Shown: positions 4,257 through 49,500, counted from the first letter of the stretch. The stretch: DNA of 64,000 bases from a virus (IMGVR_UViG_3300002026_000015:1-64000); one strand, 5' to 3'. Made by a program: numbers and translations. Notes: generated by a model not told the origin, from the letters alone.

Positions 4257-4268
4257 CATTAAGATGTC
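4257..4268 (-). promoter_or_regulatory. late-type promoter GACA-N6-TG
   Basis: GACA-TCTTAA-TG upstream of terL. Confidence 0.6.
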
Positions 4269-4365
4269 TATATTAAGTTATGACAAAGTCGGATATAAGA
4301 TAAGATTTCTTATACTTCGCAAAATTTTTCTATGGTTCAAAGTAACCAGGAACGGATTTATTATG
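4267..4365 (+). repeat. conserved ~100-bp early promoter/structured leader, copy A
   Basis: About 90% identical to 26481-26579 (8 substitutions and 2 indels by hand count); 32 nt identical to 49456-49487. Confidence 0.9.
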
Positions 4366-4701
4366 ACTACTCTTACAACAACTGAGCCTGTATCTAAATT
4401 TTCTCTCACTATCGCTGATTTTAAGGCAAATAATGTTGACATGATATGGCAGCAGGAATGTATATTTAACGGGGAACTTACCCCGGTTAAATATAAGGTT
4501 ATTGTGGATGATGAGTACAAATTGAAGTTAACATTATCGTTCCCCGATCTTGGGGAATCACTTACAATGAACCTAACAGATATTCATGAGGAGTATCCAG
4601 AAAATGATAATGGGGAAACCCATTATGAAGATCAGATGGGAAGCTTCATCGTGAATGTAAAGCTTACCGATGAAGTTATTTACTTTACAATCTATAAATA
4701 A
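4363..4701 (+). CDS. hypothetical acidic protein (single-gene early cassette)
   Basis: Start reassigned to ATG 4363 after the conserved leader and RBS; ends before a terminator. Confidence 0.75.
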   Translation: MTTLTTTEPVSKFSLTIADFKANNVDMIWQQECIFNGELTPVKYKVIVDDEYKLKLTLSFPDLGESLTMNLTDIHEEYPENDNGETHYEDQMGSFIVNVKLTDEVIYFTIYK

Positions 4702-4719
4702 GATTGTAAAGTAAATAGA

Positions 4720-4749
4720 AAGAGGAGGGAATTAACCCTCCTCTTTTTT
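4720..4749. terminator. bidirectional terminator
   Basis: AAGAGGAGGG-aattaa-CCCTCCTCTT plus T tract. Confidence 0.8.
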
Positions 4750-4750
4750 G

Positions 4751-5362
4751 TTATAATTCGGATAATAATCTTTTAAACATATTTAAATTATGTTTTTCAA
4801 GACTAGACATCGATTGTTTAAATTTTTCATAATCTTTTCCAAATGTTAAACATTTGAATTTATAAAAATTAGTTTTAACAAACAATCTCCCAATGAATTG
4901 AGCTTTCGCTGTTTCAGATATGATAATTGAAGTATTATGCAAACTATCTTTAATTCTAGAATTTTCAACTTCAACTACACTCTTATCTAAAGATTCATAT
5001 CTCCCAATTATCATTTTAATAATTTTCAATATTTTAGATTTATCATCAATTTTATCAAAATTATAATCCGTAAATGGAATTATACGATCTTTATCATCAG
5101 AATCATAACCTGTAATATCTGCGATAGTTTCGGAAAAGTCTTTAAAATTCTCACGATTTCCATCTCGCTTATAGTATTCAAAATCTTCACGATCAATACC
5201 ATTTACCGAATTTATAAAACTTCGAATATTATCACTGTAGGTCGATATTACATCTTCATAGATATCATAAATCTTGAAATCATCATATTTATTTAAGATT
5301 TTTTCAAGTTTATGATTATCTAGAAGTTTTTTAATGAAGTCGCCTGCAGCCGACTCTACTGA
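4751..5362 (-). CDS. -1 frame extension (203 aa) of the 714-aa protein, probably reached by programmed frameshift
   Basis: Frame is open from 5362 to 4751 with no ATG/GTG/TTG until 5029; slippery heptamer at 5368-5362. Confidence 0.7.
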   Translation of the reverse strand, partial: SVESAAGDFIKKLLDNHKLEKILNKYDDFKIYDIYEDVISTYSDNIRSFINSVNGIDREDFEYYKRDGNRENFKDFSETIADITGYDSDDKDRIIPFTDYNFDKIDDKSKILKIIKMIIGRYESLDKSVVEVENSRIKDSLHNTSIIISETAKAQFIGRLFVKTNFYKFKCLTFGKDYEKFKQSMSSLEKHNLNMFKRLLSEL

Positions 5363-5368
5363 AAATTT
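5337..5368 (-). promoter_or_regulatory. -1 ribosomal frameshift signal (slippery heptamer plus hairpin)
   Basis: A AAU UUU, 5-nt spacer CAGUA, then GAGUCG-gcugcagg-CGACUU stem-loop. Confidence 0.7.
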
Positions 5369-7500
5369 TCTTCACCAACACTAATTTTAAAATCGCCATT
5401 ATTCGAAGAGATTTCAGCACTCTCGATAATATCGGAAATTTTACTAATAGTAGTCTGAGCAACCTCAGCTTCATCTTCAGTCAGATTACCAGTATCTACA
5501 ACCATTGAAAGTTTAATAGATCCTTTATATGCTTCAGCAAGAGCTTCTTCATCTTCAGACTCAGCAGCAAATTTCGCATCAGAAATCAACTTATCACAAT
5601 ATGGTTTAATGTCTACTCCGAGTTTTGTATCACTCATAAACAGAGAAATCATATTCTGAGAGGTCTTAGAGAAAATGTTTCCAAATGCCCATCCACCTTG
5701 TTTGAGATCTTCAGTATCTTCGGATTCGTATGAAGTTTTAGGTCCACCACGAACGTTGAGTTTGTTTTCCATATCATTACGCATACTATACATCTTACTT
5801 GTAATAGAAGCAATGTAGCGAACAAGACGGTAAACTGTACCCATACCTGTGATACGTCCACGAATATTCATGAATTTATCAAAGAGGCCGCTTTTATTTA
5901 CGATATCTTTAATATCTCCCTGTCTATCATCTTCGCTTTCATTGTCCCACTCACGAGGACCATCGGTTGCAGGAGTACAACATTTACTATCAGAAGCTGA
6001 GATAAATGTGTCTTTCTGAACGCTATACAAATATCGTTCACCTTGTTCAACACCATTAACTCCGGATCTCATAATATCTTTGACAAATTCATAGTCTTTT
6101 ACAGAGATATTCTTAGATTTGTAAAGACGATCTTTGATGTCAAATACATATTTAAGAGTAAATGATCCGGAAATGATAGCTGCAACTGATTGGTAGAATT
6201 CATCGATAACTTTAGTGTAATCAGGTGCTACACTTTCGAGATATTCAAAAATTCTATTAATCTCATAACTATCATGAGTTCGATCGCCATCGAAACAACG
6301 ACTTGGAATTCCAACGAGGTTTTCAATTCCAGCGTTGAAATCTTTACTGCCGATAGACACTGATGCCAATGACACCATGAATACAATAGAATTCGACACA
6401 AGGAATTCCAACATCGCGTCATCTTGATCTTTAGGAGCAACAAAGATATTCTTTGTCATGATATCTGAAATCATAGAGTTGAATACGAAATCCATACTAC
6501 GTGATCCAGTCAATACTCCAGCATAAGTTCTTGATGCAGCATATTGAGAAGTTCTAGGATCTTCTGACCAACCAGCCTGATACAGAGGGCTATTCTTAGC
6601 GAAGAATCTCATCTTATCGGCAACGTATTGACGAGTTCCTTTGAAAGATACGTTCGAATAATATTTATTCAAACTTCCAATGGTACTTACAAAGATAGAT
6701 GTCGCAAACTTCGTACTGATAACGAAACTATCCATCATTTCAGTCAAGAAAGTTCTTGATGAAATATAACTGAGAACCTCACCTACAACAGATCTGAACA
6801 GAGTTCTAAACGTTGAAGTGTCAAGACTCTTAAGTGCTTCGCCTTGGAGTTTATTCCAAACATGGATAGTTATGATTCTATACATATCATCTTTATCGAT
6901 ATGGGTGTACACATTGATAATGTCAGATTTGTTGAGAGTCTCAACATCTTCAGGTTTATCAAGAGCTGTACGAGCCATCGGGATACAGTATGAAAGTGGT
7001 ATCAGTGTATCATCGATTTCACAATCAATTTCACGACGGATTGTAGAAAACTTATCAGATTCGCTATCACTGAACTCAACAGCTTTAAAACGTTTAAGAA
7101 GTGTAGTGAAAACGTTTTCACCCTTCTTAGGATGTCTAACATTGTCATCAAGACGATAAAAATGTTTAATCGCATCGAATCCAGGGATTACAGAATCCGC
7201 AGTAAGTTTTACATTGTTGGTAGATGCGTCAATTGGTTGAATAATTGATCCAGCTTTCAAACCATAAGATCTTCTAAGTGTATTATAACTTGAAGAGAAT
7301 GTTTTGAGAAGTTCATCATAATCCGCATCATTGACACTGTTACCACGTTCATCGCTGAGAACTTTGGTTAGCAACTCAGTGTATTCTTTAACATAATTCT
7401 GCAAAATCTGAGAGATGTTGAAGTCATAGGTATTGAAAAACCCTGTTAATGCAAACTCTCTCAGGTTGTTACTAGTCTTAGGATTTCTATCAAGATCCAT
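5356..7500 (-). CDS. large late protein, probable virion (head) protein
   Basis: 714-aa ORF, late promoter GACA-TCATAT-TG at 7531-7542, adjacent to another head-like protein. Confidence 0.7.
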   Translation of the reverse strand: MDLDRNPKTSNNLREFALTGFFNTYDFNISQILQNYVKEYTELLTKVLSDERGNSVNDADYDELLKTFSSSYNTLRRSYGLKAGSIIQPIDASTNNVKLTADSVIPGFDAIKHFYRLDDNVRHPKKGENVFTTLLKRFKAVEFSDSESDKFSTIRREIDCEIDDTLIPLSYCIPMARTALDKPEDVETLNKSDIINVYTHIDKDDMYRIITIHVWNKLQGEALKSLDTSTFRTLFRSVVGEVLSYISSRTFLTEMMDSFVISTKFATSIFVSTIGSLNKYYSNVSFKGTRQYVADKMRFFAKNSPLYQAGWSEDPRTSQYAASRTYAGVLTGSRSMDFVFNSMISDIMTKNIFVAPKDQDDAMLEFLVSNSIVFMVSLASVSIGSKDFNAGIENLVGIPSRCFDGDRTHDSYEINRIFEYLESVAPDYTKVIDEFYQSVAAIISGSFTLKYVFDIKDRLYKSKNISVKDYEFVKDIMRSGVNGVEQGERYLYSVQKDTFISASDSKCCTPATDGPREWDNESEDDRQGDIKDIVNKSGLFDKFMNIRGRITGMGTVYRLVRYIASITSKMYSMRNDMENKLNVRGGPKTSYESEDTEDLKQGGWAFGNIFSKTSQNMISLFMSDTKLGVDIKPYCDKLISDAKFAAESEDEEALAEAYKGSIKLSMVVDTGNLTEDEAEVAQTTISKISDIIESAEISSNNGDFKISVGEENFQ

Positions 7501-7593
7501 ATAACCGCCTTATTCAGATTAAAATTTCTACAATATGATGTCCATAAAGAAAAGAATTTAGTATGGGATTTCTCCCATACTAAACTATAAATA

Positions 7594-8577
7594 CTAATCT
7601 TCGGATTTATCAACATGATGGTTGATACCAAGACCTGCAAAGATAGAAGCACGACGTTTGTACTGAGAATCAACGTGTTGATAGATCTCTTTTACAAGGT
7701 CGGTAGTTCTTTCGATATCTTTCTGAACACGTTTGTACAGTGCAAGATAATCTTTTACAAGTTTGATAAGACCTTTTACAGCTTCATTCGCATTCTTATC
7801 GCCATCATATTTTGAATCAAGTTTGATAGCGTTTTCAAGACCTTTTTTGAAAATATTAGTTCTCATAAGTCCATTAATACTGTTGATCTGATACATATAT
7901 GTATCAGGCCATTTGAGAATCTCAACGATAGTATTCTTATGTTTATGCTTACCTTTTTCGGTATTCTTAACATCTTCATTATACTCTGAAGTAATTGTTT
8001 CCAATTCTTTAGAGCATTCTTTGATATCAGATATGATTTCCGAAATATTTCCGCTACTAACTCTAGATTTGAAAGATTTGAAAAGTGCTTCAACTTTCTT
8101 GTATGAAACCTTCATTCCTTCAATAGCTTCACCAACGTTTCCATTAAGATAAACACCAATGATATTATATCTATCAGTGTTAGCTTTATCTTTAAAGATT
8201 TCGTCAACGATCTTTTCAACAAGACTTGTATTTGCACGTCTGAAATAGATGTAAGGTCTATTTACATCTTTGATAGCCTCTTCAAAGTTCAAGATGAGAT
8301 CAGCAATTCGACGAACTGCAACCAAGTATGGAATCATATGTAAAATATTTACCAAGAATGCTTTAGCTGCATCAAGGAATCCCTCTTCTGAAACTTTATT
8401 TGGATCAAGATAATTCTCAAATCCAAAAAGGCTTTCCAAACCATAATACGATTTCCAAAATTCTTCTGACATTTGAATAATGTTAACGTTTTCATCAAGT
8501 TCTTCAGAATCGATAGATTTCTCTTCGAAAAGTTCTTCCATATCGTTTTCTAATGAAATTGTATCAGTCCATTCCAT
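7594..8577 (-). CDS. probable internal head protein with acidic propeptide
   Basis: 327 aa; first 65 aa acidic with SLE, SEE, SEE, GLE, GFE and SEE/GF motifs; late promoter AACA-TTGTAA-TG at 8600-8611. Confidence 0.65.
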   Translation of the reverse strand: MEWTDTISLENDMEELFEEKSIDSEELDENVNIIQMSEEFWKSYYGLESLFGFENYLDPNKVSEEGFLDAAKAFLVNILHMIPYLVAVRRIADLILNFEEAIKDVNRPYIYFRRANTSLVEKIVDEIFKDKANTDRYNIIGVYLNGNVGEAIEGMKVSYKKVEALFKSFKSRVSSGNISEIISDIKECSKELETITSEYNEDVKNTEKGKHKHKNTIVEILKWPDTYMYQINSINGLMRTNIFKKGLENAIKLDSKYDGDKNANEAVKGLIKLVKDYLALYKRVQKDIERTTDLVKEIYQHVDSQYKRRASIFAGLGINHHVDKSED

Positions 8578-8697
8578 ATAGTACTCCTTAGTAATTATAC
8601 ATTACAATGTTTCTTTAATAACAAATATGAGTATATATAACATTATGGTATGGAAAGTATATCTATACTAACAATTAAACTTTTAAGGGAGATGTTT

Positions 8698-9075
8698 ATG
8701 AAATTCGGAATCAAAAAACCAGAGATCGTTGTGAAGAAGGATTATCGAGTCGGTATCAAAATCGAGGAAGATGTGCAAGTATCGGCGATTGCAGTATTCG
8801 TGAAAAATGATAGTGGGAAAGTTGTCCCAACCGCAGATGTGTTGATATGGTTCGAAGAGCGTGATGATAAAATTGATTTCACTCTTTGGAACTTGCGGGC
8901 GGAAGCGGACTATGATATCGGAAATCTCAGACAGATTGTTTTATATGACAGATTTGTAAAATCATTGCATGGTAAAATTTTAAATAGGAGGGAATATCCC
9001 TCCTATTTTTTTTTATTTATGCGTCTCCACCTTCAACAATACTATTACATGGGGGAACTATACCACATGAAGTAA
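8698..9075 (+). CDS. hypothetical protein (early)
   Basis: GGGAG RBS before ATG 8698; the ORF runs through the terminator at 8982-9014, so the 3' end is doubtful. Confidence 0.6.
   Translation: MKFGIKKPEIVVKKDYRVGIKIEEDVQVSAIAVFVKNDSGKVVPTADVLIWFEERDDKIDFTLWNLRAEADYDIGNLRQIVLYDRFVKSLHGKILNRREYPSYFFLFMRLHLQQYYYMGELYHMK
8982..9014. terminator. terminator
   Basis: AAATAGGAGGGA-ata-TCCCTCCTATTT plus T tract. Confidence 0.7.
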
Positions 9076-9162
9076 TTATACTGTAAACGCTAACCCAAGT
9101 AACAAGGTTTACAGGTGGAATTTTACCAGTTTTATTGAAGTGTTCTCCGCACTCTACAGCAC

Positions 9163-18410: not shown

Positions 18411-19196
18411 ATGGTAGAAAATAATATGGGACTTGATAAAAATGAAATAAAATTATTAGAAAATATTTATGATGATAACATAATTTGGAATTGTGAAAGT
18501 TTCAACAAGCGTGATGGTAGATATAAAACAAGATTGAGATTTAAGAAGAATAATATCATTATTAATAGAAATACCTCAACGTGGAGACTTGAATCATCAT
18601 TAGGTAGAAAATTAAAAAACAAGGAATCATGGAGGCACAGAAACTTGTGATCATATAGATAATGATAAAACTAATGATAAGTTATCAAACTTAAAATTGT
18701 TAAAAATGAGATTATCATAAACATGTTAAATGATTATTATACCGATGGAATTGGTATAAATGAGCTGTCTAGAAAATATAACTACGATAGAAAAAGTATT
18801 GCCGCAATAATAACTTTCAAAACATATAGACACGTAAGTGCAGATTTTAGAAACAATCTTAAAATTTTAAGAGTAAACTGCACTAATAAAGTAATAAATG
18901 AAAATATCGCATTCAGAATACTATGTGCTTACAAATTTGAAGGTATGATTGTACGTGATATAAGTAAGAAATTTGGAATATCAAGACAATCTGTTACGGA
19001 TATAATTTATAATAGAACTTGGAAAACTGTACCTCGACCATTTTATATCACAATCGATGGAGTCTCAAGATTTATCAAAACTGGAGATGTAATTATTGTA
19101 AATGGTAAAGGTTATAAATTCACTGGAGATCTGCCAGATTATAGTCAGAATTCTACATATATCGATGGAGACCTATTGATAAAAGTTTCAGTATGA
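18411..19196 (+). pseudogene. degenerate HNH homing endonuclease with C-terminal HTH repeats
   Basis: HNH motif ETCDHIDNDKTNDKLSNL lies in the +1 frame at about 18640-18693 between ORFs 18411 and 18723; two frame breaks. Confidence 0.75.
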
Positions 19197-24864: not shown

Positions 24865-25086
24865 ATGGAAGCTAATCTTTTCGATATTGTAGTTCTTCCG
24901 AAAATCGTTGAAAAAGCGAGATCTGTAAATCTTTCGGGAGATCCGGCACAAGATCTTAACACTGTAATTGGGATGATGGCAACATCGTTAAAGTTTATTA
25001 GAGACTATGACCTTACAAAGGAACAATCTCAAACTTTGGCAAATGTATCCTTAGCCGCTATGAAAGATATTGGTCTTGAAGTATAA
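24865..25086 (+). CDS. hypothetical protein
   Basis: GAAGG RBS before ATG 24865; terminator 25084-25115. Confidence 0.6.
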   Translation: MEANLFDIVVLPKIVEKARSVNLSGDPAQDLNTVIGMMATSLKFIRDYDLTKEQSQTLANVSLAAMKDIGLEV

Positions 25087-25115
25087 AAAGAGTGGGTTGA
25101 TTCCCACTCTTTTTA
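25084..25115 (+). terminator. intrinsic terminator
   Basis: TAAAAAGAGTGGG-ttgatt-CCCACTCTTTTTA. Confidence 0.8.
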
Positions 25116-25139
25116 TTATGTAATAATGAGAATGTTACG

Positions 25140-25422
25140 TCTATATTAAGTGATGATCAGGATATATAAATAAGGTTTCTTCTACAGCAGCAGGTATAAA
25201 GCCTGTTGCTGGGTTGGAACTGGTTCAGGAACTAACAATTCCTGGAGAACAGTTGTATTAGAACTTAAAGGAACTCTCCAGTTCGTTAAGTTCTAATAGG
25301 ACGTCATGAGCATGACGGTTATAAAAGGCTCATCTTCTCTCCCTGACTCAAGGGATTATATGTCATAAGCATGGGCTAGACACCGCAACTATCGGATATA
25401 GTTAGAGAAGAAAGGTTTCAGG
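25140..25422 (+). ncRNA. early promoter followed by a highly structured ~260-nt leader or ncRNA (unknown family)
   Basis: TCTATATTAAGTGATGA promoter; stems 25185-25211, 25218-25254, 25256-25298 (13 perfect bp) and 25333-25411. Confidence 0.55.
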
Positions 25423-25731
25423 ATGACCTATATCAACCTGACACCGCATGCTATCGTGCTTAACGATGGTCGCTCATTTCCAGCTTCAGGAACACTTGCA
25501 CGTGTTTCGGCTAGTTATAGCACCATTGTTGACGATGTATGTACTCAAGTTTACGGCGATGTTCAGGATCTTCCTGCTCCCGTAGATGGCGTACGTTACA
25601 TTGTAAGCGCACTTGTGCTTGGAGCTCTCAATGGATCACGTTCGGATGTAGTAGCACCAGCTACTGGTCATCCTGACACTGTCAGAAATGACAAGGGTCA
25701 CATTGTATCAGTTCCATCATTTGTGAACTAG
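25423..25731 (+). CDS. NLTPH-family protein, candidate Crn4-like ring nuclease/anti-CRISPR
   Basis: INLTPH, LPAP..GVRYIVS..V, R.DVVAP and VRNDKGHI motifs; family match recalled from memory. Confidence 0.6.
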   Translation: MTYINLTPHAIVLNDGRSFPASGTLARVSASYSTIVDDVCTQVYGDVQDLPAPVDGVRYIVSALVLGALNGSRSDVVAPATGHPDTVRNDKGHIVSVPSFVN

Positions 25732-26411: not shown

Positions 26412-26480
26412 AATAAGTCCTTCATTAAGTTTACACATTAAAATGTTTTAAAAGAAGTGTAATAATCAAACTTTGGAGTA

Positions 26481-26579
26481 TATATTAAGTTATGATAAAG
26501 ACGAATATGAGATAAGGTTTCTCATACTTCGCAAGATTTTTCTATGGTTCGAAAGTAACCAGGAATAGGATTTATTATG
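26481..26579 (+). repeat. conserved early promoter/structured leader, copy B
   Basis: about 90% identical to 4269-4365 with a compensatory base-pair change in the hairpin. Confidence 0.9.
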
Positions 26580-26966
26580 GAAGAAGTAGTAGTATTTGGA
26601 TCGACATATGAAGCTGTAAGCTCGTACGAAGGATACCTTAACAAATATTATTGCGTTAAGGTATCAGATGGAACGGTTATTCAATTCTCTTCTCAATCCG
26701 TAGATTTCTACGGTGACGAAGAAGAATCGATTGTTATAAACGGACTCCCGTACTCACGGGAGTCAAAGATTGTTAACGGGACTCAGGTCCTGCTGAACAT
26801 GGATGAACTCGATTTTGGAGTTCACCCATTAAATGGTCCGGAGTTCTTAACAAAACTTTCGGGCGAGATTGATCTGAGAACACTCAGATCAAACCCAAAG
26901 TCGGCAAAGTATGCCGACTTTGTGGAGGCGTATAAGCGCCTGATCGCAGATTTCAACATTCATTGA
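26577..26966 (+). CDS. hypothetical protein (single-gene early cassette)
   Basis: 129 aa after leader copy B; terminator 26968-27009. Confidence 0.8.
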   Translation: MEEVVVFGSTYEAVSSYEGYLNKYYCVKVSDGTVIQFSSQSVDFYGDEEESIVINGLPYSRESKIVNGTQVLLNMDELDFGVHPLNGPEFLTKLSGEIDLRTLRSNPKSAKYADFVEAYKRLIADFNIH

Positions 26967-26967: not shown

Positions 26968-27009
26968 AAAGAAAGAAGGCGGATTAATCCGCCTTCTTTC
27001 TTTTTTTTT
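26968..27009. terminator. bidirectional terminator
   Basis: AAAGAAAGAAGGCGGA-tta(a)-TCCGCCTTCTTTCTTT. Confidence 0.85.
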
Positions 27010-27011: not shown

Positions 27012-29025
27012 TTACAAACTAGTCGTATCACACGCATTTCCCGCGCAAGCTGACTCTGACTGCACCGATGTGTTATCTTCAGTTTCGATAATGGAATTAA
27101 GATCGAAGTCTACAGAGCGTTCCATCAATATAGATGAAAGACGTTCATATTCTTCTTCAGTAATATCTTCATATCGGAGCTGAGGATAAGTTCCTCCGTC
27201 ATAATCGAGAAGAGAAATACCGTTATAAATGTTACGGTTTTCCCACATCCAATCAGTAATCATACCCCATTCATCAGGACGAACAGATACCGTTACAGAT
27301 ACATTGTGACAGTTAGTTCCTTCACGATGCGTTCCACGAATCCATTCCTTTCATAGGAATTGAAACACATGATTTTGTTTTAGGAGTATAGTAACTATCC
27401 TCAACAAATTCAGAACCAAGCACTTCAACGACGTGTTTATGCATAGGATTATCTTTTTCAAGATCAAATCTACGAATGAAATAATCATTGTGCCACGCAT
27501 GGATACCGGAAGAAGTTCCAAGAACAAGACTACACGTACCAGATGGTTTAACTGTACCGATACGTTTTGCAGGATTGATACCGATAAGGTTAGCAACTCG
27601 TTCATTTTCTTCAAGCGAAACTTTAGCAGCGATAGAAATATCGTAATCGAGAACTTTACCAGAACCGATGCCTGTCATAGATACGCCGAGAAGTGCGTCA
27701 TCTTCAGAGTTAATTCTCCATTTATCACGAAGATAATGGAAATCGGTATAACCAGCCTGAAGAGTTCCAAGGAATGTTGCATCTTTAACACGTTTATTAA
27801 GATCTTCCTGAGAAGTAATGTTAGACACATTAACCTCAGTAAGATTACAGAACTGACAGTCTTTAAGAGAGATCTCTGCACAAGGGTTGAAGAAGAGTTC
27901 CAAATCGTCAGTCCAGAAGATTCCTGGTTCACCAGCTTTAGAATTCTCAACCATAACCATGATTTCACGGAAACGCTCTTCAGATGTCACAGATCTAAGA
28001 AGAATTGCAGAATTGTTTGCAAGCTGACGCTGTTTTTCAAGCTTGTACCATGGGAGTTTACCGCCACTTGAGTGAAGCATATCGATATCCCACTGAGACA
28101 TTTCGATAGTTTTAATATCACCTTTGTACTCATATTCCATCATATATTCTGATGATGGACCTTCGCCAACAACATGTTTAATTTCACGAACGTCAATATC
28201 GAAATTACTTTTACAAGTAAGCATCTCTTCATCATCATGACTGAAGATGGAGATGAGAGCTGATCGACGAATACCGCCTGCAAGAACTGCATCGGAGATG
28301 TAACAAATAATGTCATGAACTTCGATAGGTTTAAGTTTAGCACCTTCCCCACGAGATTCAATAACATAATCGAAAACTTTACGGATACTGTGAATACAAT
28401 CGATAAGAGGTTCAGGACCAGGAGCGCGACCACCGGCGGTTTTGAGAAGTGATCCTTTAGGACGTATTTCTGAGAAGTCGTAATCAAGGTACGGTCGATC
28501 TTCAAAATAAGATCGTACAAGAGCTTTTATAGAATCCGCCCAACCCATGATACTATCTTGTACAATGAATTTACGGTGACGAGAAATAGGAGTTGTGATA
28601 GGCGGAAGTTGATCAACGTGATGTTTCTGAATAGAATAACCTACTCCAGAACCGCCAAGTAGAAGATACATGATTTCAGAGAATGCAACTGATGTATATA
28701 CTGCAAGAGCTGAACAGTTAAACATTCGAGATGCATTCATAAGGATAGGTTTTCCGGCAAATTGGAAACTTCTCATCGAAGGTACAGATTGTTTATCCAA
28801 TACAGATCCGCCAAATACACCATAAATCTCATCTGCAAGTTTTGGATATTTCCCAACATGCATATCAGCATTACGGTAGCAAAGCATTGGCCAGTCTTCA
28901 CGGCGTTGCAGTTTAGGAATATACTTTGCATATTTTGTAAAGATAATCATATCGGAGAGCATTTCCGATGGATTATTGTATTTAGACATCTTCTTTGACT
29001 CCATGATTCCGCTTTCGTCACTCAT
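27012..29025 (-). pseudogene. nrdJ: class II adenosylcobalamin-dependent ribonucleotide reductase, split by a frameshift/apparent deletion at about 27348
   Basis: FNCS, GGIRRSA, NPCAEI, CNLTE and TVKPSGT in 29025-27349; EWIRGTH..HNVS..WMWENR..YNG and C-terminal ACAGNAC in the +1 frame 27347-27012. Confidence 0.85.
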
Positions 29026-29661: not shown

Positions 29662-30891
29662 ATGACAACAGATTTGAGAGCTTTCAATTACGGCAACTAC
29701 AAAATGGGCAGAAACTATATTTTCTTCGGAATGTATTTCCAGGTTCGTGGAGAAGAGAATCCTCCAGTAAACAATAACGCGGATATGTACAATCCGAAGT
29801 TTGCAAAAATCATCAGTGTAAATCCCAAAGTTCTCGTATTTTCAAAGGATAAGTTCTTTGATCCTGCAAACCATGAGCTTTACGAAATTGTCAACCTTGA
29901 AGAACTTATGAAAGGTGTCGGCAATTACGAAAATGTTTTTGAGAAATATCTCATTATCAAAAACACAACCACTGGCGAAATTTGTATTGAGCATAAAGAA
30001 CTCCTTTACAGACTTGAATCTTGGAAAATTCCAAGAATTTCACGGGCTTCGTCATCTGAAGATGTAGTAGTTACAATGGATCTCATGTTTATTGCAAATG
30101 CAGTAGACAAATCTCTTGAAAACAAAAGACGTTATGTAAGTGATGCGTTTGTAAATCATGAAGTGTTCAATCTTATCTGCAGAGTCATTTCAAATCATTA
30201 TATCAATCAACCAAGATATTTCCAAACAAAGTTTGATTCGGAAGGAACTATCGAGTTCTTGGACAATCTTGTATACAGTATGATGAAAAAGTGTACAGAT
30301 AAAGATGATATCATCTTTCCGAGAACAATTCAAACTTTCATGAATGTAAAACGTTTTGCAAACAAACTATTTGGAGATTTTACAATTCTTCAGATGATCG
30401 ATACCCTTAATGGAGAAAACGTTAAATTTGATAAAGAATTTGTAAATGCAAGATATGGCGATGCATGTATGCATCCTGCAAATCGAATCATTGCAGATGA
30501 TGTTACGAAGAAAGTTTTATCTGAGGTTCGGAATAAATACGCTGAAGCTGGTAATGATCTCATAAGTAAAGCATTTGCAAATCATCCGACGCTCGTACAT
30601 AGATGCTATAGAGAGTCTACAACAATTGTGGAATTTCTTGAAAATCTTTGTGAGATTGAAGATTTCAAATACATATTTGAGAGATTCGATTTACCAACAC
30701 TCCTAACATTCCTTGAGAATGAGTTTGAAGAGTTCTTTACAAAACTCTATACAAATTTCTTCAAAACTGTTATGGAGGGTGCGTTCTCAACTTGGTCGAA
30801 CAATATTGTTATTGAAGTTGATACTTCAGTTGTAAATAAAGATTTCATGGTTGATGGTAAGAAACCATATAAAATGGAGTTTGGACAATGA
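29662..30891 (+). CDS. hypothetical protein
   Basis: 409 aa, AGGAG RBS. Confidence 0.8.
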   Translation: MTTDLRAFNYGNYKMGRNYIFFGMYFQVRGEENPPVNNNADMYNPKFAKIISVNPKVLVFSKDKFFDPANHELYEIVNLEELMKGVGNYENVFEKYLIIKNTTTGEICIEHKELLYRLESWKIPRISRASSSEDVVVTMDLMFIANAVDKSLENKRRYVSDAFVNHEVFNLICRVISNHYINQPRYFQTKFDSEGTIEFLDNLVYSMMKKCTDKDDIIFPRTIQTFMNVKRFANKLFGDFTILQMIDTLNGENVKFDKEFVNARYGDACMHPANRIIADDVTKKVLSEVRNKYAEAGNDLISKAFANHPTLVHRCYRESTTIVEFLENLCEIEDFKYIFERFDLPTLLTFLENEFEEFFTKLYTNFFKTVMEGAFSTWSNNIVIEVDTSVVNKDFMVDGKKPYKMEFGQ

Positions 30892-41331: not shown

Positions 41332-41344
41332 AACCATAGAAAAA

Positions 41345-43111: not shown

Positions 43112-43294
43112 TTAGTCCTTCTTTCGTTCAACAACTTCATATTTTTTAGTTACAACGATATCTTTATCTTTACCCTTTATAAATGGTTCGATCCAAATAA
43201 CTTTACGTTCTTTGTGACCAATTCCATGGATGGTTTTCAACTTTTTGATAGAACCGGAAAGTTTTCCAATGTCAATGGTGTCTATATAAGGCAT
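43112..43294 (-). CDS. small basic hypothetical protein
   Basis: GAGG RBS; early promoter near 43342-43360. Confidence 0.6.
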   Translation of the reverse strand: MPYIDTIDIGKLSGSIKKLKTIHGIGHKERKVIWIEPFIKGKDKDIVVTKKYEVVERKKD

Positions 43295-43414: not shown

Positions 43415-44668
43415 TTATCTCCAAAATCGTTCGAAACTATAAACGTTGATTTCATTCCCAGTTGCAAACTGTATAAATTCATTGTCATCAAGTATATCTA
43501 ATTCCTCAGATAACTTAAAATCTTTTTCAATGTCATTTTTAAACGGAATGTATTTAGACTCATACAATTGAGCAGCAATCACATGACCTACAGCATATGC
43601 AGGGAAATAACCTATATGTGCATGTGTCCAATGTACATCTTGGAACAATGATGTATCATGTCCAAGAATAGTCATAGATATATCTGTAAGGAGTTTCTGA
43701 GGATCTTGTTCAGGATTATCCATCATACTCTTTTCAAATTCATATCTTACAGAAACGTGTTCATTGTAGAAATGAGGAGAATTAAATATTCTACGTTCAT
43801 GTTTTATAGGATTATTATAATCGCTATACTTACACTGACCACTATTTGGGTAGATATAAAACTGATTAAGGAATGCATGAGCTTCATCCATTGCAACAGA
43901 AACGATATCCATACAATGAATCTTATTATCAGTTATATGATTTCTAAGAGTCTCCCTCAACATGAGGTGTCCAAATTCATGCTGAATAGATTGAATGGTT
44001 TTAATCCCATCAGTCTCATTGAATTTTGTACACATTGCGGGATGATACTGAGCATTTACATTACCTTTATATTTATCCATAAGATATCCGCAGAAGTTAC
44101 CTTCTCCAGAAGCAGAATATCGTTTTACCCCATTGGACCAAAAAGTATTCTTCTCAAGAACCATTTTACGATATTCATCGATTGATATGATTGTAGATCG
44201 TTCTAATGGTTTTGCGGAACTCTTAAAAGTCTTAAAGAATTCCATAACTTCATGAACTTTAGACATGTCATCGCCAGAGATAACCCCTTGACGTCTCATC
44301 ATGTCATCATAAGTAAATCCTTCAGATTTATAGTGTCTAAAGAGTTTCTTTATCTGATCCTCATAGATTTCGAGGTTCTTGGAATCAAAAGCTTGTTGAA
44401 GTTCTACTTCATAAGGGTAACTTGAAACATATCCTTCAAGTTCTTTCTTAAGCATTCTAGAATTCTTATCGTCTGAAAAACTCAAATCCTCCAACAATAT
44501 TTTAGAAATATATTTGAGTAAATCGAGAAATTTCTCAGTATTATGATCAATTTCCCCATGAACCTTAGATAAAAAATCTGAATTTAGATAATTAGCTCTA
44601 GTTTTGTTAAACAATTCGATATTTGTTTCAATAGTTTCAAGTCTGTCAACAAATGGTAAATTTTCCAT
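43415..44668 (-). CDS. M32 (carboxypeptidase Taq-like) metallocarboxypeptidase
   Basis: HP, HEFGH (HEXXH), MDEAH (third ligand), H..VRYEFEK, QDVHW and GYFP.YA.G motifs. Confidence 0.85.
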   Translation of the reverse strand: MENLPFVDRLETIETNIELFNKTRANYLNSDFLSKVHGEIDHNTEKFLDLLKYISKILLEDLSFSDDKNSRMLKKELEGYVSSYPYEVELQQAFDSKNLEIYEDQIKKLFRHYKSEGFTYDDMMRRQGVISGDDMSKVHEVMEFFKTFKSSAKPLERSTIISIDEYRKMVLEKNTFWSNGVKRYSASGEGNFCGYLMDKYKGNVNAQYHPAMCTKFNETDGIKTIQSIQHEFGHLMLRETLRNHITDNKIHCMDIVSVAMDEAHAFLNQFYIYPNSGQCKYSDYNNPIKHERRIFNSPHFYNEHVSVRYEFEKSMMDNPEQDPQKLLTDISMTILGHDTSLFQDVHWTHAHIGYFPAYAVGHVIAAQLYESKYIPFKNDIEKDFKLSEELDILDDNEFIQFATGNEINVYSFERFWR

Positions 44669-44807
44669 TGTATTCTCCAATTATTAATATTACGATATAT
44701 TGTACAATGATTTATCAAAATAGATTATAGATATATATTTAATTATGACAGAGGTATTACAATGGTCGTAATACATCAATAATTTATTAAAAGAAAGAGG
44801 CTCAATT

Positions 44808-45287
44808 ATGAGTACTTTGATCACCTATATTACTGCTGCAATCGCCGCTCTTCAGGAATCAAACGAAGGAATTACACCAGGAGTACAGATCAGTTCTACT
44901 GGTAAACGGATTACAATCGAAATCGATTTTACAACCCCAGAAGACACAATTAACTCTGAAAAGACGAATGCCGAAATCGCCGCTGCACAGGCGAAAGCAG
45001 TGATTGCAAGTATGCCTTTTCCTCCTAACCCAATGTCGATGATGATGGGTGGAATGGGAGGATTCGGTGGAGGTTTTGGAAATGGATTTGGAGGAAATCC
45101 TTTCACAAACCCAAACCCTTCTTACCCTTCTTATGGAGAATTTCTAAAATCAATTGAAGCTTCAGATGCAGCTCGTAAAGCCGCTGAAAAGGCTCGTCAG
45201 GAATATGATGCAGAACAAGCTCGTAAAGCTAAAGCTGCAGATGAGACTATTGCTCCTGAAGATGAAGCTTCTGCTCCAATGATGTAA
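44808..45287 (+). CDS. early protein with M/G/F-rich low-complexity segment
   Basis: 159 aa; MMMGGMGGFGGGFGNGFGGNPF; early promoter near 44731; terminator 45294-45324. Confidence 0.75.
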   Translation: MSTLITYITAAIAALQESNEGITPGVQISSTGKRITIEIDFTTPEDTINSEKTNAEIAAAQAKAVIASMPFPPNPMSMMMGGMGGFGGGFGNGFGGNPFTNPNPSYPSYGEFLKSIEASDAARKAAEKARQEYDAEQARKAKAADETIAPEDEASAPMM

Positions 45288-45389
45288 TTCGGAAGAGGTG
45301 TGATTATTCACGCCTCTTTTTTTTCTAAAATGAATCATAGATATATATTAAACCATGGACACACTATTAGAGTAAACAATGGAGAATAT

Positions 45390-48158
45390 ATGTCTTATTC
45401 ATTTGAAATAGTAAGATTACGATTAGTGAACTTTGCTCACTTCTCGGATCTCGGACTAGATGATTTTGAGATAGATAGGTATGGTAGTAAAAATAATATC
45501 ATAACTATTATCGGAGCGAACGGTAGTGGTAAATCACTTCTTATAACTTCTTGGAGTCCAAGACCAAACGAGAGTACAAACAATCGCAAGAAGACCCTTA
45601 TAGTTCCAGGTAAAGAAGGTTTGAAAGAAGTTGATCTGCTAACCACGGATGAAGATGGAGATCACGGCCCTTACCTTTATAAGTGTAGAATAATCTATGG
45701 AGAAAAATCTACAAACTGTAGTATGATTCGTGTTGATAGGGAATCAGGAGAAGAAGTTGAATTGAATCCTAGCGGTTTAGTATCGGCATATGAGGAGATT
45801 CTTGAAAGTACATTCGGTATAAGTAAAAATTATAAGAATGTAGGATACTTATCTCCTGAAATAACTTCTCTTATCTCTATGACTCCAAGCGTTCGGTATG
45901 AATATATATCGACATGGTTACCGGATATCAGCCAATACATGGATGCATATAAAGCAGTGTTCAAGCGTATCAACAGCGTCAACAGACAAGTTAGAATGCT
46001 TGAAAATGATATTGGAGGAATTTCAATTGAGAAAGTTACTTCCGATAAGAAAATGCTTGAAGTTCGTCTTAAAACTGTAAATGATCGTATTGAAGAGTTT
46101 AAAGAAGTTCGTATGAGAACTTCGATAATTCTAGACGGTCTAGCGAATGTGACAGATGATTTCATTAGAAAGAATATTCAAACAATTTCTAAGAATCGTA
46201 AAACTCTCAATTCCCATTATGAAAGATTAGTTGAGCTATCTTCCGCAAGTATGAAATATCTTACAGCAGATGGTCCACAGAAGTTAATAGATGATGTTAA
46301 AGATTGTGAAAATCGTATAACGATCGTTAATTCTGAATTAGGAAATGTTTCAAGAATGATAGAAGATCAACGTATGAGACTTAAAGAAGTCGAGTATACT
46401 CTTGGAATGCTGGATGATACTGGAGATTCTCTTCCTGAAATCGGGATCATGATGGAAAGAATTGAGAAATCGATTCTTGAAGCTAATAAAGTTATTGAGA
46501 ATTATATCAATTCTTACAACTTCTTAGAAGAACTATCTGACAATTTTACGATAAACGAATTCAATATCGTTTACAATACAATCGAAACTATCATTGATAA
46601 ATGTAAACGTATTACAGATTTAGTTCCAATGGAGAAGATGGACAATCTTTCAGACTATTCAAATATCTCAGATAAAGAAACTAGTGTTGTAAATTCTAGA
46701 TTGAGAGATATTGAAGATAGAGTTAGTAAGACTCTTGAAAGAATATCTCTGTTGAAGAATAGTCCTCTAGATCCTTCAATCCTAAATAAGATTCCTGAAT
46801 GGTGCGAGAATCTTAAGTGTGGAGTTGTACTTGAAATAAAAAGATTGTTATCGCCTGATACAGAAGTTGAAAAACTTTCAGATGTACTTGATGATTTGTA
46901 TAGAAGTAAGAGCGATATCGCTGCTGAACTGGATCGTATGAGTGATGAGCATAACAATATTGCAATTGCTGTAAGTCATTCTAGTGATGTAGATCATGCG
47001 ATTATGAGAGATAAAAATTTCATAGTAATGCTTCCAAATCATATGAGAAATGTATTAAGTGAAGGGATTGTAACTATAATCTCGCATGTAAATACTTTAA
47101 CTAGAGATATGGAATCAATTAGAGAATTCATATCTTTAAGAGATCAGGTGAAGATCTATGTATCCGAACTGAAATCTCTTAAAGAAAAAGAATCTTCTCT
47201 TCGAGTTATACGAAATATGAATGGAGACATTCTTAATCTAAATAACTCAATCGACTCATTACAGATTGAAAGAAGTAAGCTTTACACTGAAGGTGAGCAA
47301 CTTCTTAAAGATCATTCTACTCTTAAGGAATTATCCGAATCAATTGGATCTATCCGAGATAGCGTAAATGAATACAATCTACAAGTTTCTAGTTTCAAAG
47401 AGACAAATGAGAAGATGAAGCTTATCTGTAAGGATTGGTATTATCGTGAAAAGATCTCAAAGTATATAAATCAGGTGGATATAAATCTTCGAAATCTGAT
47501 TATAGAAAGAGACGATTGCTCTAGAGAAATTGAATCTTTAAATAATTCTATAGTTACAAAACAATCTCTTATAGATATCCGAGATAGATTGTTGAGTACA
47601 ATAAAAGAATTGGATCTATTCCAAGATGCATGGAATCCTAAAACAGGAATCCCATCATTGTTTATAAACAATTTCCTTACACGAGTTCATGTCAAATCTA
47701 ATGAATATATGGAATCTCTAAACGGTAAAGATCTTAAAATTGAAAAATTTGAGATAGGTAAGACTGCAAGAGAGTTTCCTATAATCATTAGAAAGGATGA
47801 TTCTATAATTCCTGATGCGAATCAGTGTAGTGCTGGAGAGAAAGCTTTGTTATCATTAGCAATCTCTATGGCAGTTATAAGTGTAGCTTCCGAAAATAAA
47901 CCGTATAGAGTTTTACGTTTAGATGAGATGGATGCAACTCTTGATCATAGACGTAGAAAGTTATACATTGAAATGATTCAAGATCGTTTAAAAGAAATTG
48001 AATCTAGACAATGTTTAATCATCACTCATAGTGATGAGTTTGACGAAGTTGCAAGTGATATGATTATAATGCCAGGTGCATTTAAAAATCCTGAGTCGTT
48101 AGCTAATAAGAATGTTTTAGTTGACTTGTCTGAAATAAGTATTGACAGTTTATCTTAA
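45390..48158 (+). CDS. sbcC: SbcC/Rad50-like recombination ATPase
   Basis: GANGSGKS Walker A, long coiled coil, C....C hook-like pair, SAGE signature, LRLDEMD Walker B, ITH. Confidence 0.92.
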   Translation: MSYSFEIVRLRLVNFAHFSDLGLDDFEIDRYGSKNNIITIIGANGSGKSLLITSWSPRPNESTNNRKKTLIVPGKEGLKEVDLLTTDEDGDHGPYLYKCRIIYGEKSTNCSMIRVDRESGEEVELNPSGLVSAYEEILESTFGISKNYKNVGYLSPEITSLISMTPSVRYEYISTWLPDISQYMDAYKAVFKRINSVNRQVRMLENDIGGISIEKVTSDKKMLEVRLKTVNDRIEEFKEVRMRTSIILDGLANVTDDFIRKNIQTISKNRKTLNSHYERLVELSSASMKYLTADGPQKLIDDVKDCENRITIVNSELGNVSRMIEDQRMRLKEVEYTLGMLDDTGDSLPEIGIMMERIEKSILEANKVIENYINSYNFLEELSDNFTINEFNIVYNTIETIIDKCKRITDLVPMEKMDNLSDYSNISDKETSVVNSRLRDIEDRVSKTLERISLLKNSPLDPSILNKIPEWCENLKCGVVLEIKRLLSPDTEVEKLSDVLDDLYRSKSDIAAELDRMSDEHNNIAIAVSHSSDVDHAIMRDKNFIVMLPNHMRNVLSEGIVTIISHVNTLTRDMESIREFISLRDQVKIYVSELKSLKEKESSLRVIRNMNGDILNLNNSIDSLQIERSKLYTEGEQLLKDHSTLKELSESIGSIRDSVNEYNLQVSSFKETNEKMKLICKDWYYREKISKYINQVDINLRNLIIERDDCSREIESLNNSIVTKQSLIDIRDRLLSTIKELDLFQDAWNPKTGIPSLFINNFLTRVHVKSNEYMESLNGKDLKIEKFEIGKTAREFPIIIRKDDSIIPDANQCSAGEKALLSLAISMAVISVASENKPYRVLRLDEMDATLDHRRRKLYIEMIQDRLKEIESRQCLIITHSDEFDEVASDMIIMPGAFKNPESLANKNVLVDLSEISIDSLS

Positions 48159-48173
48159 TATCGGAGGTTTAAG

Positions 48174-48512
48174 ATGATTAGAAAAATGGGAAACTTTGTG
48201 GAAATAATTCCACAGAATAACATGGGGATTCTTAATGAATCCCTTTCAATTTGTTTGGAAAGTCGTAAGATTACATCTTTCCATTGTCGTGACCCAAGAA
48301 GTTTGAGTCATGATAAAATCATTAAAAGTTTAAAACGGGCTTATGGAAATATCCCGCAGTGTGTTGTACTTGAGATTACTCATGAACCAAGTGATACAAA
48401 CAATAAGACAATGAAGACTATCACTCAGGAAGTTATATACTTCAATCTGTTTGATGCTAATGCTGACGTTGAAAGACTTAAACGCCATTTATACCAAGGA
48501 GAAGAGTTCTAA
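48174..48512 (+). CDS. hypothetical protein
   Basis: GGAGG RBS. Confidence 0.7.
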   Translation: MIRKMGNFVEIIPQNNMGILNESLSICLESRKITSFHCRDPRSLSHDKIIKSLKRAYGNIPQCVVLEITHEPSDTNNKTMKTITQEVIYFNLFDANADVERLKRHLYQGEEF

Positions 48513-48763
48513 TGCTGAAGATGAAGTATATAATGTATGAAAAATCTGAATATTATATATTCCCAGAACTTATAAACCACTCTGATGCAGCTAAAGGCAA
48601 ATGTAGTGGTAAACCAATCTCTGCAGGATTTATTGATTTCAGAACTGAAGGTCGTCAAGTTATTGCGAATTGCTATGGCAACTCTACAACTCTTGACTTG
48701 AAGTCCAGAGGCATGCAAGATTCTATAATAATTACTCAAAATTTAAATGGGAAAATCGGATGA
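48512..48763 (+). CDS. conserved-looking phage hypothetical protein
   Basis: KYI...FP....H...PISAGF...CYG.S.TL...SR..D pattern. Confidence 0.7.
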   Translation: MLKMKYIMYEKSEYYIFPELINHSDAAKGKCSGKPISAGFIDFRTEGRQVIANCYGNSTTLDLKSRGMQDSIIITQNLNGKIG

Positions 48764-49338
48764 ATACTCAACACGTAATAGACTCATTTGGTAAAACACA
48801 TCACGAACAGATTCCAATTTCGTTTAATGTTGACAAGGGTGTTTATCATATAATCAAGTATATGAAGAAAGAATACCCTTTATTCTTAATTCCAATGGCA
48901 TCGTGTGAAGGTGATCCAATAAGTGAAGATGGTTCTTGCGGATCTCTACCATATATCATGATGATTGTGAGAGATCTGAATAAGTTTGATGAATTTGTTA
49001 AAGAAATCTTTGGAAATGATTTCTTCCAAAAACATGTGACTATTGAGTACGATTGCAGCGATATTACCCGAATATTTACAATTCGGTGGAAGACTCCTGA
49101 AACTGAAGGGTTTAATAGAAGAGCTGCAGAATTACTTGACGATGTTGATTTGGAAACTGGGAACCTTATAACCCCTCGTGTTCCAGTTCAAACTAATCCA
49201 TTAGTCGTATTGTCGATGGGATTTGATGATCAAGAAATAAAAGTTCCAAATAAAGACGATTTCACTGTTCAGGAAATTGTTTCGGGATTAAGTAGTGAAC
49301 AGATTCGGGAAAAGTATAGTTCTATACGCATGAGTTAA
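48760..49338 (+). CDS. hypothetical protein
   Basis: 192 aa, VDKG...SCEG motif; terminator 49347-49372. Confidence 0.7.
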   Translation: MNTQHVIDSFGKTHHEQIPISFNVDKGVYHIIKYMKKEYPLFLIPMASCEGDPISEDGSCGSLPYIMMIVRDLNKFDEFVKEIFGNDFFQKHVTIEYDCSDITRIFTIRWKTPETEGFNRRAAELLDDVDLETGNLITPRVPVQTNPLVVLSMGFDDQEIKVPNKDDFTVQEIVSGLSSEQIREKYSSIRMS

Positions 49339-49401
49339 ATAATAGTGTAAGTAGGGAGAAATCCCTACTTATATATTTTCTGTAATAACTCGCTTTTTAT
49401 A

Positions 49402-49500
49402 TCTATATTAAGTGACGATAAAGGATATAGATAAGAGTATTTATAATCCTAATTTAAATTTTTCTATGGTTCAAAGTAACCAGGAACAGGATCTACTATG
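49402..49500 (+). repeat. conserved early promoter/structured leader, copy C
   Basis: TCTATATTAAGTGACGA; hairpin with TAAGAG loop; 49456-49487 identical to 4322-4353. Confidence 0.85.

Follow-up and report, generated by a model that had tools for sequence, protein, structure and literature searches.

A repeated promoter-leader module heads unrelated single-gene cassettes in a putative AR9/PBS1-like jumbo phage

Why should nearly the same promoter and leader stand ahead of small genes that have nothing in common? The question is raised by the first 64,000 nucleotides (nt) of the viral record IMGVR_UViG_3300002026_000015 (positions 1-64000, here called the window; the whole phage record is 108,627 bp). 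An earlier interpretation made from this DNA by itself, the sequence-only reading, had described three full and two partial copies of a promoter followed by a hairpin-bearing leader, and had proposed from them an undescribed cis-regulatory RNA motif and/or a modular cassette system for host-takeover or anti-defence genes. Our analysis indicates that the copies form a real, lineage-conserved cassette system for early expression, which resembles the PeSL (promoter-early stem-loop) elements of T4-type phages. We consider it fairly probable that the repeat is a portable early-expression module of an AR9/PBS1-like jumbo phage, that its leader hairpins have a generic role, and that the gene behind each copy, hereafter the cargo, is turned over by recombination.

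The repeated module, about 125 bp long and composed of promoter and leader, is present six times in the record, five times in the window and once outside it, always on the plus strand and each time ahead of one small gene. Self-BLAST of the whole record returned the copies at E values of 1e-5 to 1e-33, with 77-97% identity within the genome, and uncovered only one unrelated pair of other dispersed repeats, which leaves the module as the sole substantial dispersed family. Three copies are long (4267-4365, 26481-26579 and 49402-49500, with the promoter T at 4269, 26481 and 49404 according to site alignment, repeat finder and record scan), one is short (1741-1821, promoter T at 1743) and one is truncated (25140 to about 25190, promoter T at 25142). 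The sequences and coordinates reported earlier for these three full and two partial copies, including those of the hairpins, were all verified. A search for further copies had been suggested as a check; the record has a sixth at genome position 81584 (L107:17584, 17.6 kb past the window end), which shares 96.6% identity with the 1743 copy along 87 nt, and the same layout occurs in related contigs. The extent of the repeat had to be corrected: it starts at a TGTAATAA box that had been omitted, 15 nt before the promoter core and about 23 nt upstream of the start noted earlier. Similarity between copies had been said to stop exactly at the ATG, which is the case in five of the six copies; in the 25142 copy it ends within the first hairpin.

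From 5' to 3', each unit contains the terminator of the preceding unit where there is one, the box TGTAATAA, a 15-nt spacer, the core TATATTAAGTKAYG, the leader, a ribosome-binding site (RBS) and start with the consensus GGAUYUAYYAUG, an open reading frame (ORF) of 93-129 amino acids (aa) and a terminator. The box-core pattern scan placed the box at 1720-1727 in the first copy, as the variant TGTATTAA, and at 4246-4253 in the second, as TGTAATAA; the corresponding cores lie at 1743-1756 (TATATTAAGTTATG) and 4269-4282 (motif scan). For the third, fourth and fifth copies, motif and box-core scans together delimit box, spacer and core at 25119-25155, 26458-26494 and 49381-49417. The combined pattern TGTAWTAA-N15-TATATTAAGT was found five times in the window and not once in 100 shuffles. 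Two leader types can be distinguished, a long one (4269, 26481, 49404) made of hairpin 1, a U-rich tract and hairpin 2, and a short one (1743, 81584) with hairpin 1 only.

The relatives of this phage show that the module is not restricted to it. Neither the region nor a portal-like protein had a close match among GenBank phages by BLAST, and scanning IMG/VR for exact matches to the core, to the hairpin 2 string or to box-N15-core was uninformative, with zero or single chance matches per contig. Searches for the terminase locus gave no hit with the single protein, eight viral and nine metagenome loci with an alignment, and none in prokaryote genomes; four IMG/VR contigs found by the terminase alignment were compared. 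The terminase has many metagenomic relatives, of which the closest, at 68-72% identity, lie outside the contigs compared. Identical terminase and cargo proteins are present on four contigs, the longest of 181,190 bp, and since the identical terminase stands on this 181-kb contig, the 108.6-kb record probably represents only part of the genome, which may hold more copies of the module.

In IMGVR_UViG_3300028549_000507 (G001; 200 kb, terminase 67% identical) we detected at least ten TATATTTAATAGTG-R promoters on one strand and at least seven full modules, consisting of terminator, TGTAATAA, N15, core, hairpin 1, where present a UUUUUCUAUGG hairpin 2, then GGAUYUAUUAUG, a small ORF and a terminator. 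Four of its single-gene units form a tandem array, with promoters at 29955, 29379, 28016 and 27466. Hairpin 2 together with the RBS of the 26481 copy is 85% identical to G001 over 48 nt (BLASTN). The contig IMGVR_UViG_3300001598_001658 (G004; 145 kb, terminase 43% identical) carries four copies of a composite made of terminator, (CCTATGAWTC)CGTAATAA, N18 and the core TATTATATTGTG. Since both contigs carry the composite element, it is a feature of the lineage and not an accident of one genome.

This phage and G001 have the genes of the terminase neighbourhood in the same order and differ in the cassettes among them. At the terminase 3' end both phages have a module, which precedes a 93-aa soluble protein here and a 51-aa membrane protein in G001; the 714-aa gene upstream is separated from the terminase start by the 4269 cassette here and by only a terminator in G001. 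Comparison of relatives for different genes behind the same leader, a check proposed earlier, showed in this way that cargo is not fixed. Within a genome the leader sub-families are near-identical pairs or triplets, and between the phages almost no leader is shared, which fits leaders being spread or homogenised by recombination. The recurrence of the layout in related contigs with entirely different, GC-rich (rich in guanine and cytosine) cargo supports the modular-cassette part of the sequence-only reading.

The cargo genes themselves are mutually unrelated, as had been claimed and as protein comparison confirmed for all 13 ORFs (six here and seven in G001), and they have no homologues in the related contigs compared. 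In the window they are located at 1819-2100 (93 aa, RBS GGA at 1810), 4363-4701 (112 aa, RBS GGAUUUAUUAUG at 4354-4365), 25423-25731 (102 aa, GC 46.6%), 26577-26966 (129 aa, GC 42.3%) and 49498-49884 (128 aa, GC 43.9%). Pfam and PHROGs assigned a family to no cargo except the 25423 gene. The 4363 product found only itself among 5.8 billion proteins, and searches of the protein atlas and of all representatives gave no usable relatives for the 26577 product. Residues 7-52 of the latter resemble a unit of about 40 aa that is repeated 13 times in a 4480-aa protein and seven times in a 578-aa protein. Several G001 cargo and the 81661 protein of this phage are small membrane proteins. In both phages the GC content of the cargo is higher than that of the other genes (Mann-Whitney p = 4e-4 and 1e-3), and four of the six cargo genes here are at or above the 95th GC percentile, which suggests a foreign origin.

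One cargo gene could be assigned to a family. The family profile of the 25423 product matches PDB entry 9r7b_A (Crn4b) with an E value of 2e-6, its AlphaFold2 model has a predicted local distance difference test (pLDDT) score of 97.5, and the top seven Foldseek matches of this model are all Crn4 (best E 1.4e-8, template modelling (TM) score 0.72). Residues T7, H9 and R88 are invariant in 30 homologues of the product, and in Crn4 a conserved Thr, His and Arg serve cyclic oligoadenylate binding and catalysis (PMC12830947). Phage Crn4b has been proposed as an anti-CRISPR enzyme, possibly also directed against the cyclic oligonucleotide-based antiphage signalling system (CBASS) (PMC12830947). The model and the profile indicate that the 25423 gene likely encodes a Crn4b-like ring nuclease, a predicted enzyme of a known counter-defence class acting against CRISPR or CBASS. 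This family comprises more than 500 proteins at 60-84% identity, and the gene was found in at least 80 unrelated viral contigs without module or leader, so it moves independently of the module. The earlier suggestion that the cargo serves host takeover or anti-defence has therefore gained one concrete case, and the other cargo genes belong to no recognisable family.

What reads these promoters can be approached through their core. TATATTAAGTKAYG is a subclass of a genome-wide motif, TATATTWANNNWNGR (TATATTWA-NNNWNG-R), which has 14 occurrences in the window, where 1.3 would be expected, and about 18-20 sites in the record, all of them upstream of gene starts. The core resembles the early consensus of phages AR9 and PBS1 and not sigma-70; in AR9, the early consensus AAATATATATTAT-6N-G(+1) is read by an injected virion RNA polymerase (Lavysh et al. 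2017, PMC5312081). A sigma-70 promoter was rejected, as the consensus scan lists none of the module promoters, nor is TGTAATAA(T) acceptable as an extended -10 element, since most copies lack the final T. By analogy with AR9 (PMC5312081), transcription is predicted to start at about 1757, 4283 (G4282 or A4283, and the equivalent positions elsewhere), 25156, 26495 and 49418, to be early, and to be carried out by the virion polymerase.

The box upstream of the core has a counterpart in PBS1 (NC_043027.1). The pattern TATATATTAT-6N-R is found there at 30 sites, against four for a control pattern, and in nine of the 30 a CCGTAT(T/C)AAA box precedes the core by about 16 nt, at a place equivalent to that of TGTAATAA and with a similar sequence. 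This PBS1 promoter sub-class is not part of the consensus given in the AR9 paper. Early promoters of the phiKZ type are conserved around -10, -20 and -30 (PMC11512511; Wicke et al. 2020, PMC8244752). Because PBS1 sites have a similar box at the equivalent place, the TGTAATAA box is most simply explained as the -30 element of a promoter sub-class.

Other features of the record point to the same lineage. It encodes a protein of 1511 aa similar to the beta subunit of RNA polymerase (phrog_3148), whose nearest relatives, at about 30% identity, are those of PBS1/Goe21, Listeria LPJP1, Yersinia phiR1-37 and Staphylococcus S6-type jumbo phages, and whose gene stands behind a late-type promoter; in G001 there are two beta'-like proteins with the DFDGD/DYDGD catalytic motif. 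Late promoters of the AR9 type, AACA-N6-TR, are threefold enriched in the intergenic 7% of the record (35 of 166 sites). Twenty-seven such sites lie at most 120 nt upstream of a gene start, with the local consensus AAAACATnnTAATGT, and precede structural genes and the RNA polymerase gene; examples in the window are at 871(-), 8600(-), 39625(-), 53029(-) and 55950(+). On these resemblances the phage appears to belong with the AR9 type, that is, with the AR9/PBS1-like jumbo lineage that encodes its own multisubunit RNA polymerases.

Two further observations concern genes next to the cassettes. A putative late promoter, GACATCTTAATG (compared with AAACATnnTAATG), near the consensus AAAACATnnTAATGT, lies at 4257-4268 on the minus strand, 32 nt before the terminase ATG at 4225. 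Its location, antisense within the 15-nt spacer of the 4269 module, means that the early plus-strand and the late minus-strand promoters would overlap back to back. It was the only late-type promoter seen for the terminase, a gene that the bidirectional terminator of the cassette separates from the upstream operon. In addition, comparison with G001 shows the RNA polymerase beta-like gene (L110:2051-6586, genome 82050-86585, minus strand) to be inverted with respect to the genes around it, and the 81584 cassette is located at one inversion junction.

How the cassettes are separated from their surroundings is indicated by the terminators. The terminator scan lists one downstream of the cargo at 1819, 4363, 26577, 49498 and 81661, often with A- and T-run flanks, and none that is clear after the 25423 gene. 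The first of these (2083-2114, both strands) is common to the 1819 gene and the convergent terminase gene (2120-4225, minus), and the one after the 4363 gene (4717-4748) is likewise bidirectional. After the 26577 gene, an A-run, a 16-bp stem and a T-run (26968-27003) face a convergent minus-strand gene at 27012-27263; its symmetric flanks suggest that this terminator works in both directions, the scan having listed the plus strand only. The terminator after the 49498 gene (49907-49926, plus) faces a convergent minus-strand gene at 49936-50607.

A terminator is also present directly 5' of the box in four of the six copies, and likewise in most copies of G001 and G004. Three were found by the scan, at 1686-1717 (the intrinsic terminator of the upstream plus-strand gene, with a 14-bp stem and a T-run), 49345-49374 (listed without a strand) and L107:17517-17547; the fourth, a terminator-like stem-loop with a T-run at 25084-25113, was not listed by the scan and was recognised in the repeat output (family D9) and by eye. 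The 4269 and 26481 copies have no upstream terminator, and both adjoin the start of a divergent minus-strand gene. The terminator stems share the top GGGATTTCTCC or its complement, an 11-mer with 12 occurrences in the record, flanked by A- and T-runs. The terminators are thus a dispersed look-alike family of their own, and could provide 3' homology for cassette exchange. The cassettes had been described as standing alone on the plus strand and converging on a late gene; this holds for the present genome, whereas the relative also has the co-directional tandem array.

What, then, does the transcribed leader contribute? Folding places hairpin 1 at 1763-1795 in the short leader of the first copy (z-score of -3.4 over the first 42 nt), at 4290-4319 in the second, with a CGGA/UUCG lower stem, a bulged C, a UAUAAGA/UCUUAUA upper stem and the loop UAAGAUU, and at 26502-26531 in the fourth. 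In the fifth copy (49422-49450, z -3.4) it is diverged, with a G-U pair and in a different register, and in the third it is decayed (25160-25186, no fold, z +2.1). Hairpin 2 is found at 4328-4352, where the UGGUU/AACCA stem is extended by UUCU/GGAA directly 5' of the RBS, at 26545-26561 and at 49467-49482. Whole leaders fold only with z-scores of -0.6 to -1.9, and the first 42 nt of the hairpin-bearing copies reach -2.7 to -3.6.

The stems had been described as covarying. Hairpin 1, aligned within this genome, has 91% of its cells paired and one clean compensatory pair, the A-U to G-C change of the 26502-26531 hairpin, which is matched by 159 of 500 shuffles. Hairpin 2, aligned across this genome and G001, has 93% paired cells, one compensatory pair (U-A to A-U) and three G-U-compatible changes, matched by 32 of 500 shuffles; when its partners are slid, only 29-59% pair. 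With one compensatory pair per hairpin, the covariation is weak and not significant against shuffles.

These data bear on the other half of the earlier proposal, an undescribed specific cis-regulatory RNA, according to which a protein or a small RNA would bind hairpin 1 at its UAAGR loop and/or hairpin 2 and co-regulate translation or decay of the cargo messages, for example in a post-early shut-off such as that of T4 RegA/RegB on early mRNAs. Its appeal is that UAAGR is kept atop hairpin 1 in five copies of this genome while one stem pair changes in a compensatory manner, that the leader is conserved up to the ATG in both phages, RBS context included, and that the RBS pairs with the upstream leader in some copies (AUCCUAU/AUAGGAU at 43263 of G001). 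The loop is nevertheless confined to this genome: no module of G001 contains TAAGR, the loops there being AAAGA, GACU/GAAU and GAGU/GAAU. A covariance model of hairpin 1 (R2), the kind of check that had been advised, retrieves only four near-identical copies, misses the one at 49404 and finds none in relatives, and the matches of a model of hairpin 2 with the RBS (R1) are all in this genome and G001. Four modules that are otherwise intact (1743, 81584, and 16300 and 29379 in G001) lack hairpin 2, RBS sequestration is inconsistent between copies, and no Rfam family reaches its gathering threshold anywhere in the record, the sub-threshold matches in 1600-4800 being terminators and not leaders. 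Recent duplication or gene conversion can explain the conservation within the genome. With the covariation not significant either, we regard a specific RNA switch as unlikely, and this part of the sequence-only reading was not supported. Two more specialised candidates were rejected: a lambda nut/boxB-like element (no boxA, loops not conserved, no Rfam match) and an integron attC site, hairpin 2 showing no core-site motif in an inspection by eye only, with no integrase search made.

If the leader is not a specific switch, its similarity between copies might have arisen neutrally from recently duplicated promoter fragments, with only promoter and RBS being of importance and the hairpins functionless. 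The small number of copies, their high identity within the genome (77-97%), the insignificant covariation and the 25142 copy, which lost its hairpin and still heads a conserved gene, are all compatible with this. It is hard to reconcile with G001, which has the same two-hairpin layout with unrelated stem sequences. Hairpin 1 of G001 consists of three unrelated sequences (GGAUAG-AAAGA-CUAUACC; AUAGAUU-GACU-GAUCUAU; and a 13-bp GAAGGAAGUAAC stem), located like that of this phage 3-8 nt from the predicted 5' end, and a second hairpin 2 family in G001 (GGGCG/CGCCC against GGGCA/UGCCC) lies next to the RBS and has its own compensatory pair. Six of seven independent leader sub-families fold far better than shuffles (z of -2.7 or below over the first 42 nt) with unrelated stem sequences, and changes in the stems keep pairing in 91-93% of cells against the 29-59% of slid partners. 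A functionless leader is, on this evidence, very unlikely. That early leaders generally begin with a hairpin is not borne out in this genome, where as a set they fold no better than background (p = 0.22); it holds for long leaders only.

The inverted repeat could instead act in DNA, as the operator of a dimeric repressor or as a cruciform for promoter recognition; the virion polymerase of phage N4 reads hairpin promoters. The geometry would suit such a role, since hairpin 1 corresponds in DNA to inverted arms of 7 bp, 7 nt apart, between +12 and +32, where roadblocks are typically found. The 49404 copy, in contrast, pairs only through G-T, which is workable in RNA; the half-sites differ between sub-families and are unrelated in the relative, so that there is no common recognition sequence, and about a dozen promoters with the same core have no inverted repeat. 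We consider a DNA element highly improbable. Taken together, the leaders keep a structure and not a sequence, and we take this as a sign of a generic role, in 5'-end protection and in a constant RBS context.

A timing role in transcription was also considered, in which hairpin 1 and the downstream U-tract form an attenuator, giving a short RNA derived from the 5' untranslated region, or an antitermination target. In giant phage 201phi2-1, eight of 11 small RNAs arise by premature termination in 5' untranslated regions (PMC11512511); the long leaders here have a U5 tract after hairpin 1, and TTTTTCTATGGTTC, the 5' flank of hairpin 2, is also seen after true terminators at 41332-41342 (minus) and at genome 81549. 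The U-tract, however, lies 5-20 nt past the stem and does not adjoin it, the AU-rich stems, with -8 to -11 kcal/mol, are weak, the terminator scan flags no leader hairpin, and leaders of the short type have no U-tract. Attenuation is accordingly quite unlikely in our judgement.

The sequence around hairpin 2 has a distribution of its own. A T-run plus CTATGGTTC, which comprises the 5' flank and 5' arm of hairpin 2, follows true terminators at 41332-41342 (minus) and L107:17549-17562 (genome 81549), and is also found in G004 (L147, about 19068-19085; L153, about 7272-7290). At genome 81549 and in G004 the string stands directly before a (T/C)GTAATAA box. In its make-up the long leader resembles a promoter with hairpin 1 fused to a remnant of a terminator tail plus box. 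The leader of the 25142 copy is different again: about 267 nt long (25156-25422), it has very stable stems, with a z-score of -3.9 over its first 105 nt (25156-25260), and its portion from 25187 to 25422 belongs to this copy only. Nothing similar to this leader precedes the Crn4b-like gene family in 80 other viral loci.

We return to the portable early-expression module, which we favour. The shared promoter-leader and a downstream terminator, mostly bidirectional, would make a self-contained, insulated and monocistronic early unit for one accessory gene, able to sit on the opposite strand inside blocks of late genes. Hairpin 1 would protect the 5' end of the short mRNA, and both hairpins would keep the ribosome-binding context constant whatever the cargo, so that the leader hairpins are probably generic and not a switch for a specific ligand or protein. 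Recombination between modules and between similar terminators may spread and homogenise the copies, by which cargo would be gained, lost and swapped; the cargo would consist of foreign-looking accessory genes, at least one of them for counter-defence. The role of the hairpins and the recombination mechanism are what we infer, and several points weigh against this picture. Short-leader early promoters have no hairpin, so a 5' hairpin is not generally required, and a hairpin that begins 3-8 nt into the predicted transcript is a borderline case for protection against 5'-end-dependent RNases in model bacteria. The picture does not account for the occurrence of TTTTTCTATGGTTC directly after true terminators. 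Early timing and transcription start are predicted only by analogy, and the partial record contains the virion-type beta-like gene only, the second polymerase being seen just in the relative. Finally, the relatives are distant (terminase identity of 67% at most), so recombination is read from the presence, absence and replacement of cassettes and not from breakpoints in near-identical genomes.

A bolder version of the module, which we hold to be rather unlikely, would be that it marks and helps to assemble horizontally captured counter-defence genes. Promoter-leader and terminators would be the homology arms of an integrase-free analogue of an integron, and a phage factor would read the hairpins for an immediate-early burst and a later shut-off. 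If this were true, the five cargo genes without relatives here and the seven of G001 would be new anti-defence or host-takeover genes that could be found by the cis-marker alone.

The portable module has consequences beyond this record. The box-N15-core-leader arrangement offers a sequence marker for early accessory genes in uncultured jumbo-phage contigs, and because one of the genes so marked is Crn4b-like, the unannotated cargo are reasonable counter-defence candidates. The two-hairpin leader, placed by the phage before unrelated genes, would be a natural insulated expression part. The -30 box TGTAATAA / CCGTATTAAA, common to PBS1, points to an unreported sub-class of virion-polymerase promoters.

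Comparison with known systems defines what is particular to the module. With the early promoters of AR9/PBS1 and phiKZ-like phages it shares an extended AT-rich core, here (W)TATATATTWA-6N-R with a predicted start 6 nt downstream, and a conserved element around -30, and the phage also has late promoters of the AR9 type, AACA-N6-TR. The leaders of PBS1, which among studied phages is the nearest, are in contrast short and neither repeated nor similarly structured, and the dispersed repeats of PBS1 are of other kinds. In an incomplete search of the literature we found no description of one leader reused for unrelated cargo, or of such modules, in jumbo phages that encode RNA polymerases. Morons of lambdoid phages are single accessory genes with their own promoter and terminator and a deviating base composition, typically expressed from the prophage and without a shared repeated promoter-leader. 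The units described here are similarly self-contained, each with one foreign-looking gene between core genes, and differ in sharing one module and in being predicted, by analogy, to be early and lytic. In the leaders of Escherichia coli ompA and T7 gene 10, a stabilising 5' stem-loop near the transcript end is combined with an AU-rich stretch and a strong RBS. Hairpin 1, which would start 3-8 nt from the predicted end, is proposed to act like these stabilisers and has no sequence relation to them.

The closest parallel is the PeSL, to which the sequence-only reading had already pointed. PeSLs are repeated elements of terminator stem-loop, early promoter and Shine-Dalgarno/start codon that stand before genes without relatives and are tied to modular shuffling (Arbiol et al. 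2010, PMC2839356; Comeau et al. 2014, PMC4122927). Like them, the module is a short composite of terminator, early promoter and, at its 3' edge, Shine-Dalgarno sequence and start codon; it precedes genes without known relatives, similarity ends at the gene, and it appears to be linked to insertion, deletion and replacement of accessory genes between relatives and would insulate early genes from late neighbours. The differences are equally clear. T4-type PeSL promoters are sigma-70-like, with -35 and -10 hexamers, where the present one is AR9/PBS1-like. About 50 PeSL copies are found per genome in phi1 and RB49, against six per roughly 109 kb here and at least ten promoters of the class in the relative, and unlike PeSLs the module includes a conserved transcribed leader with one or two hairpins. 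The cassettes here are isolated within late-gene blocks and not gathered in hyperplastic regions, the relative having a tandem array. PeSLs mediate indels and replacements between close genomes and form mini-circles; differing cargo at a syntenic site and one cassette present or absent were seen here at 67% terminase identity. The PeSL host is a T4-like myovirus, and the phage studied here is nearest to the PBS1/AR9 group, phiR1-37 and S6-like jumbo phages. The analogy is thus sound and membership of the family is not, because the promoter is not of the sigma-70 type, the phage is not T4-like and the repeat contains a structured leader. The data carry the PeSL idea beyond T4-like phages into a lineage whose early genes are read by a virion polymerase of its own, and suggest that large phages arrived at modular early cassettes convergently.

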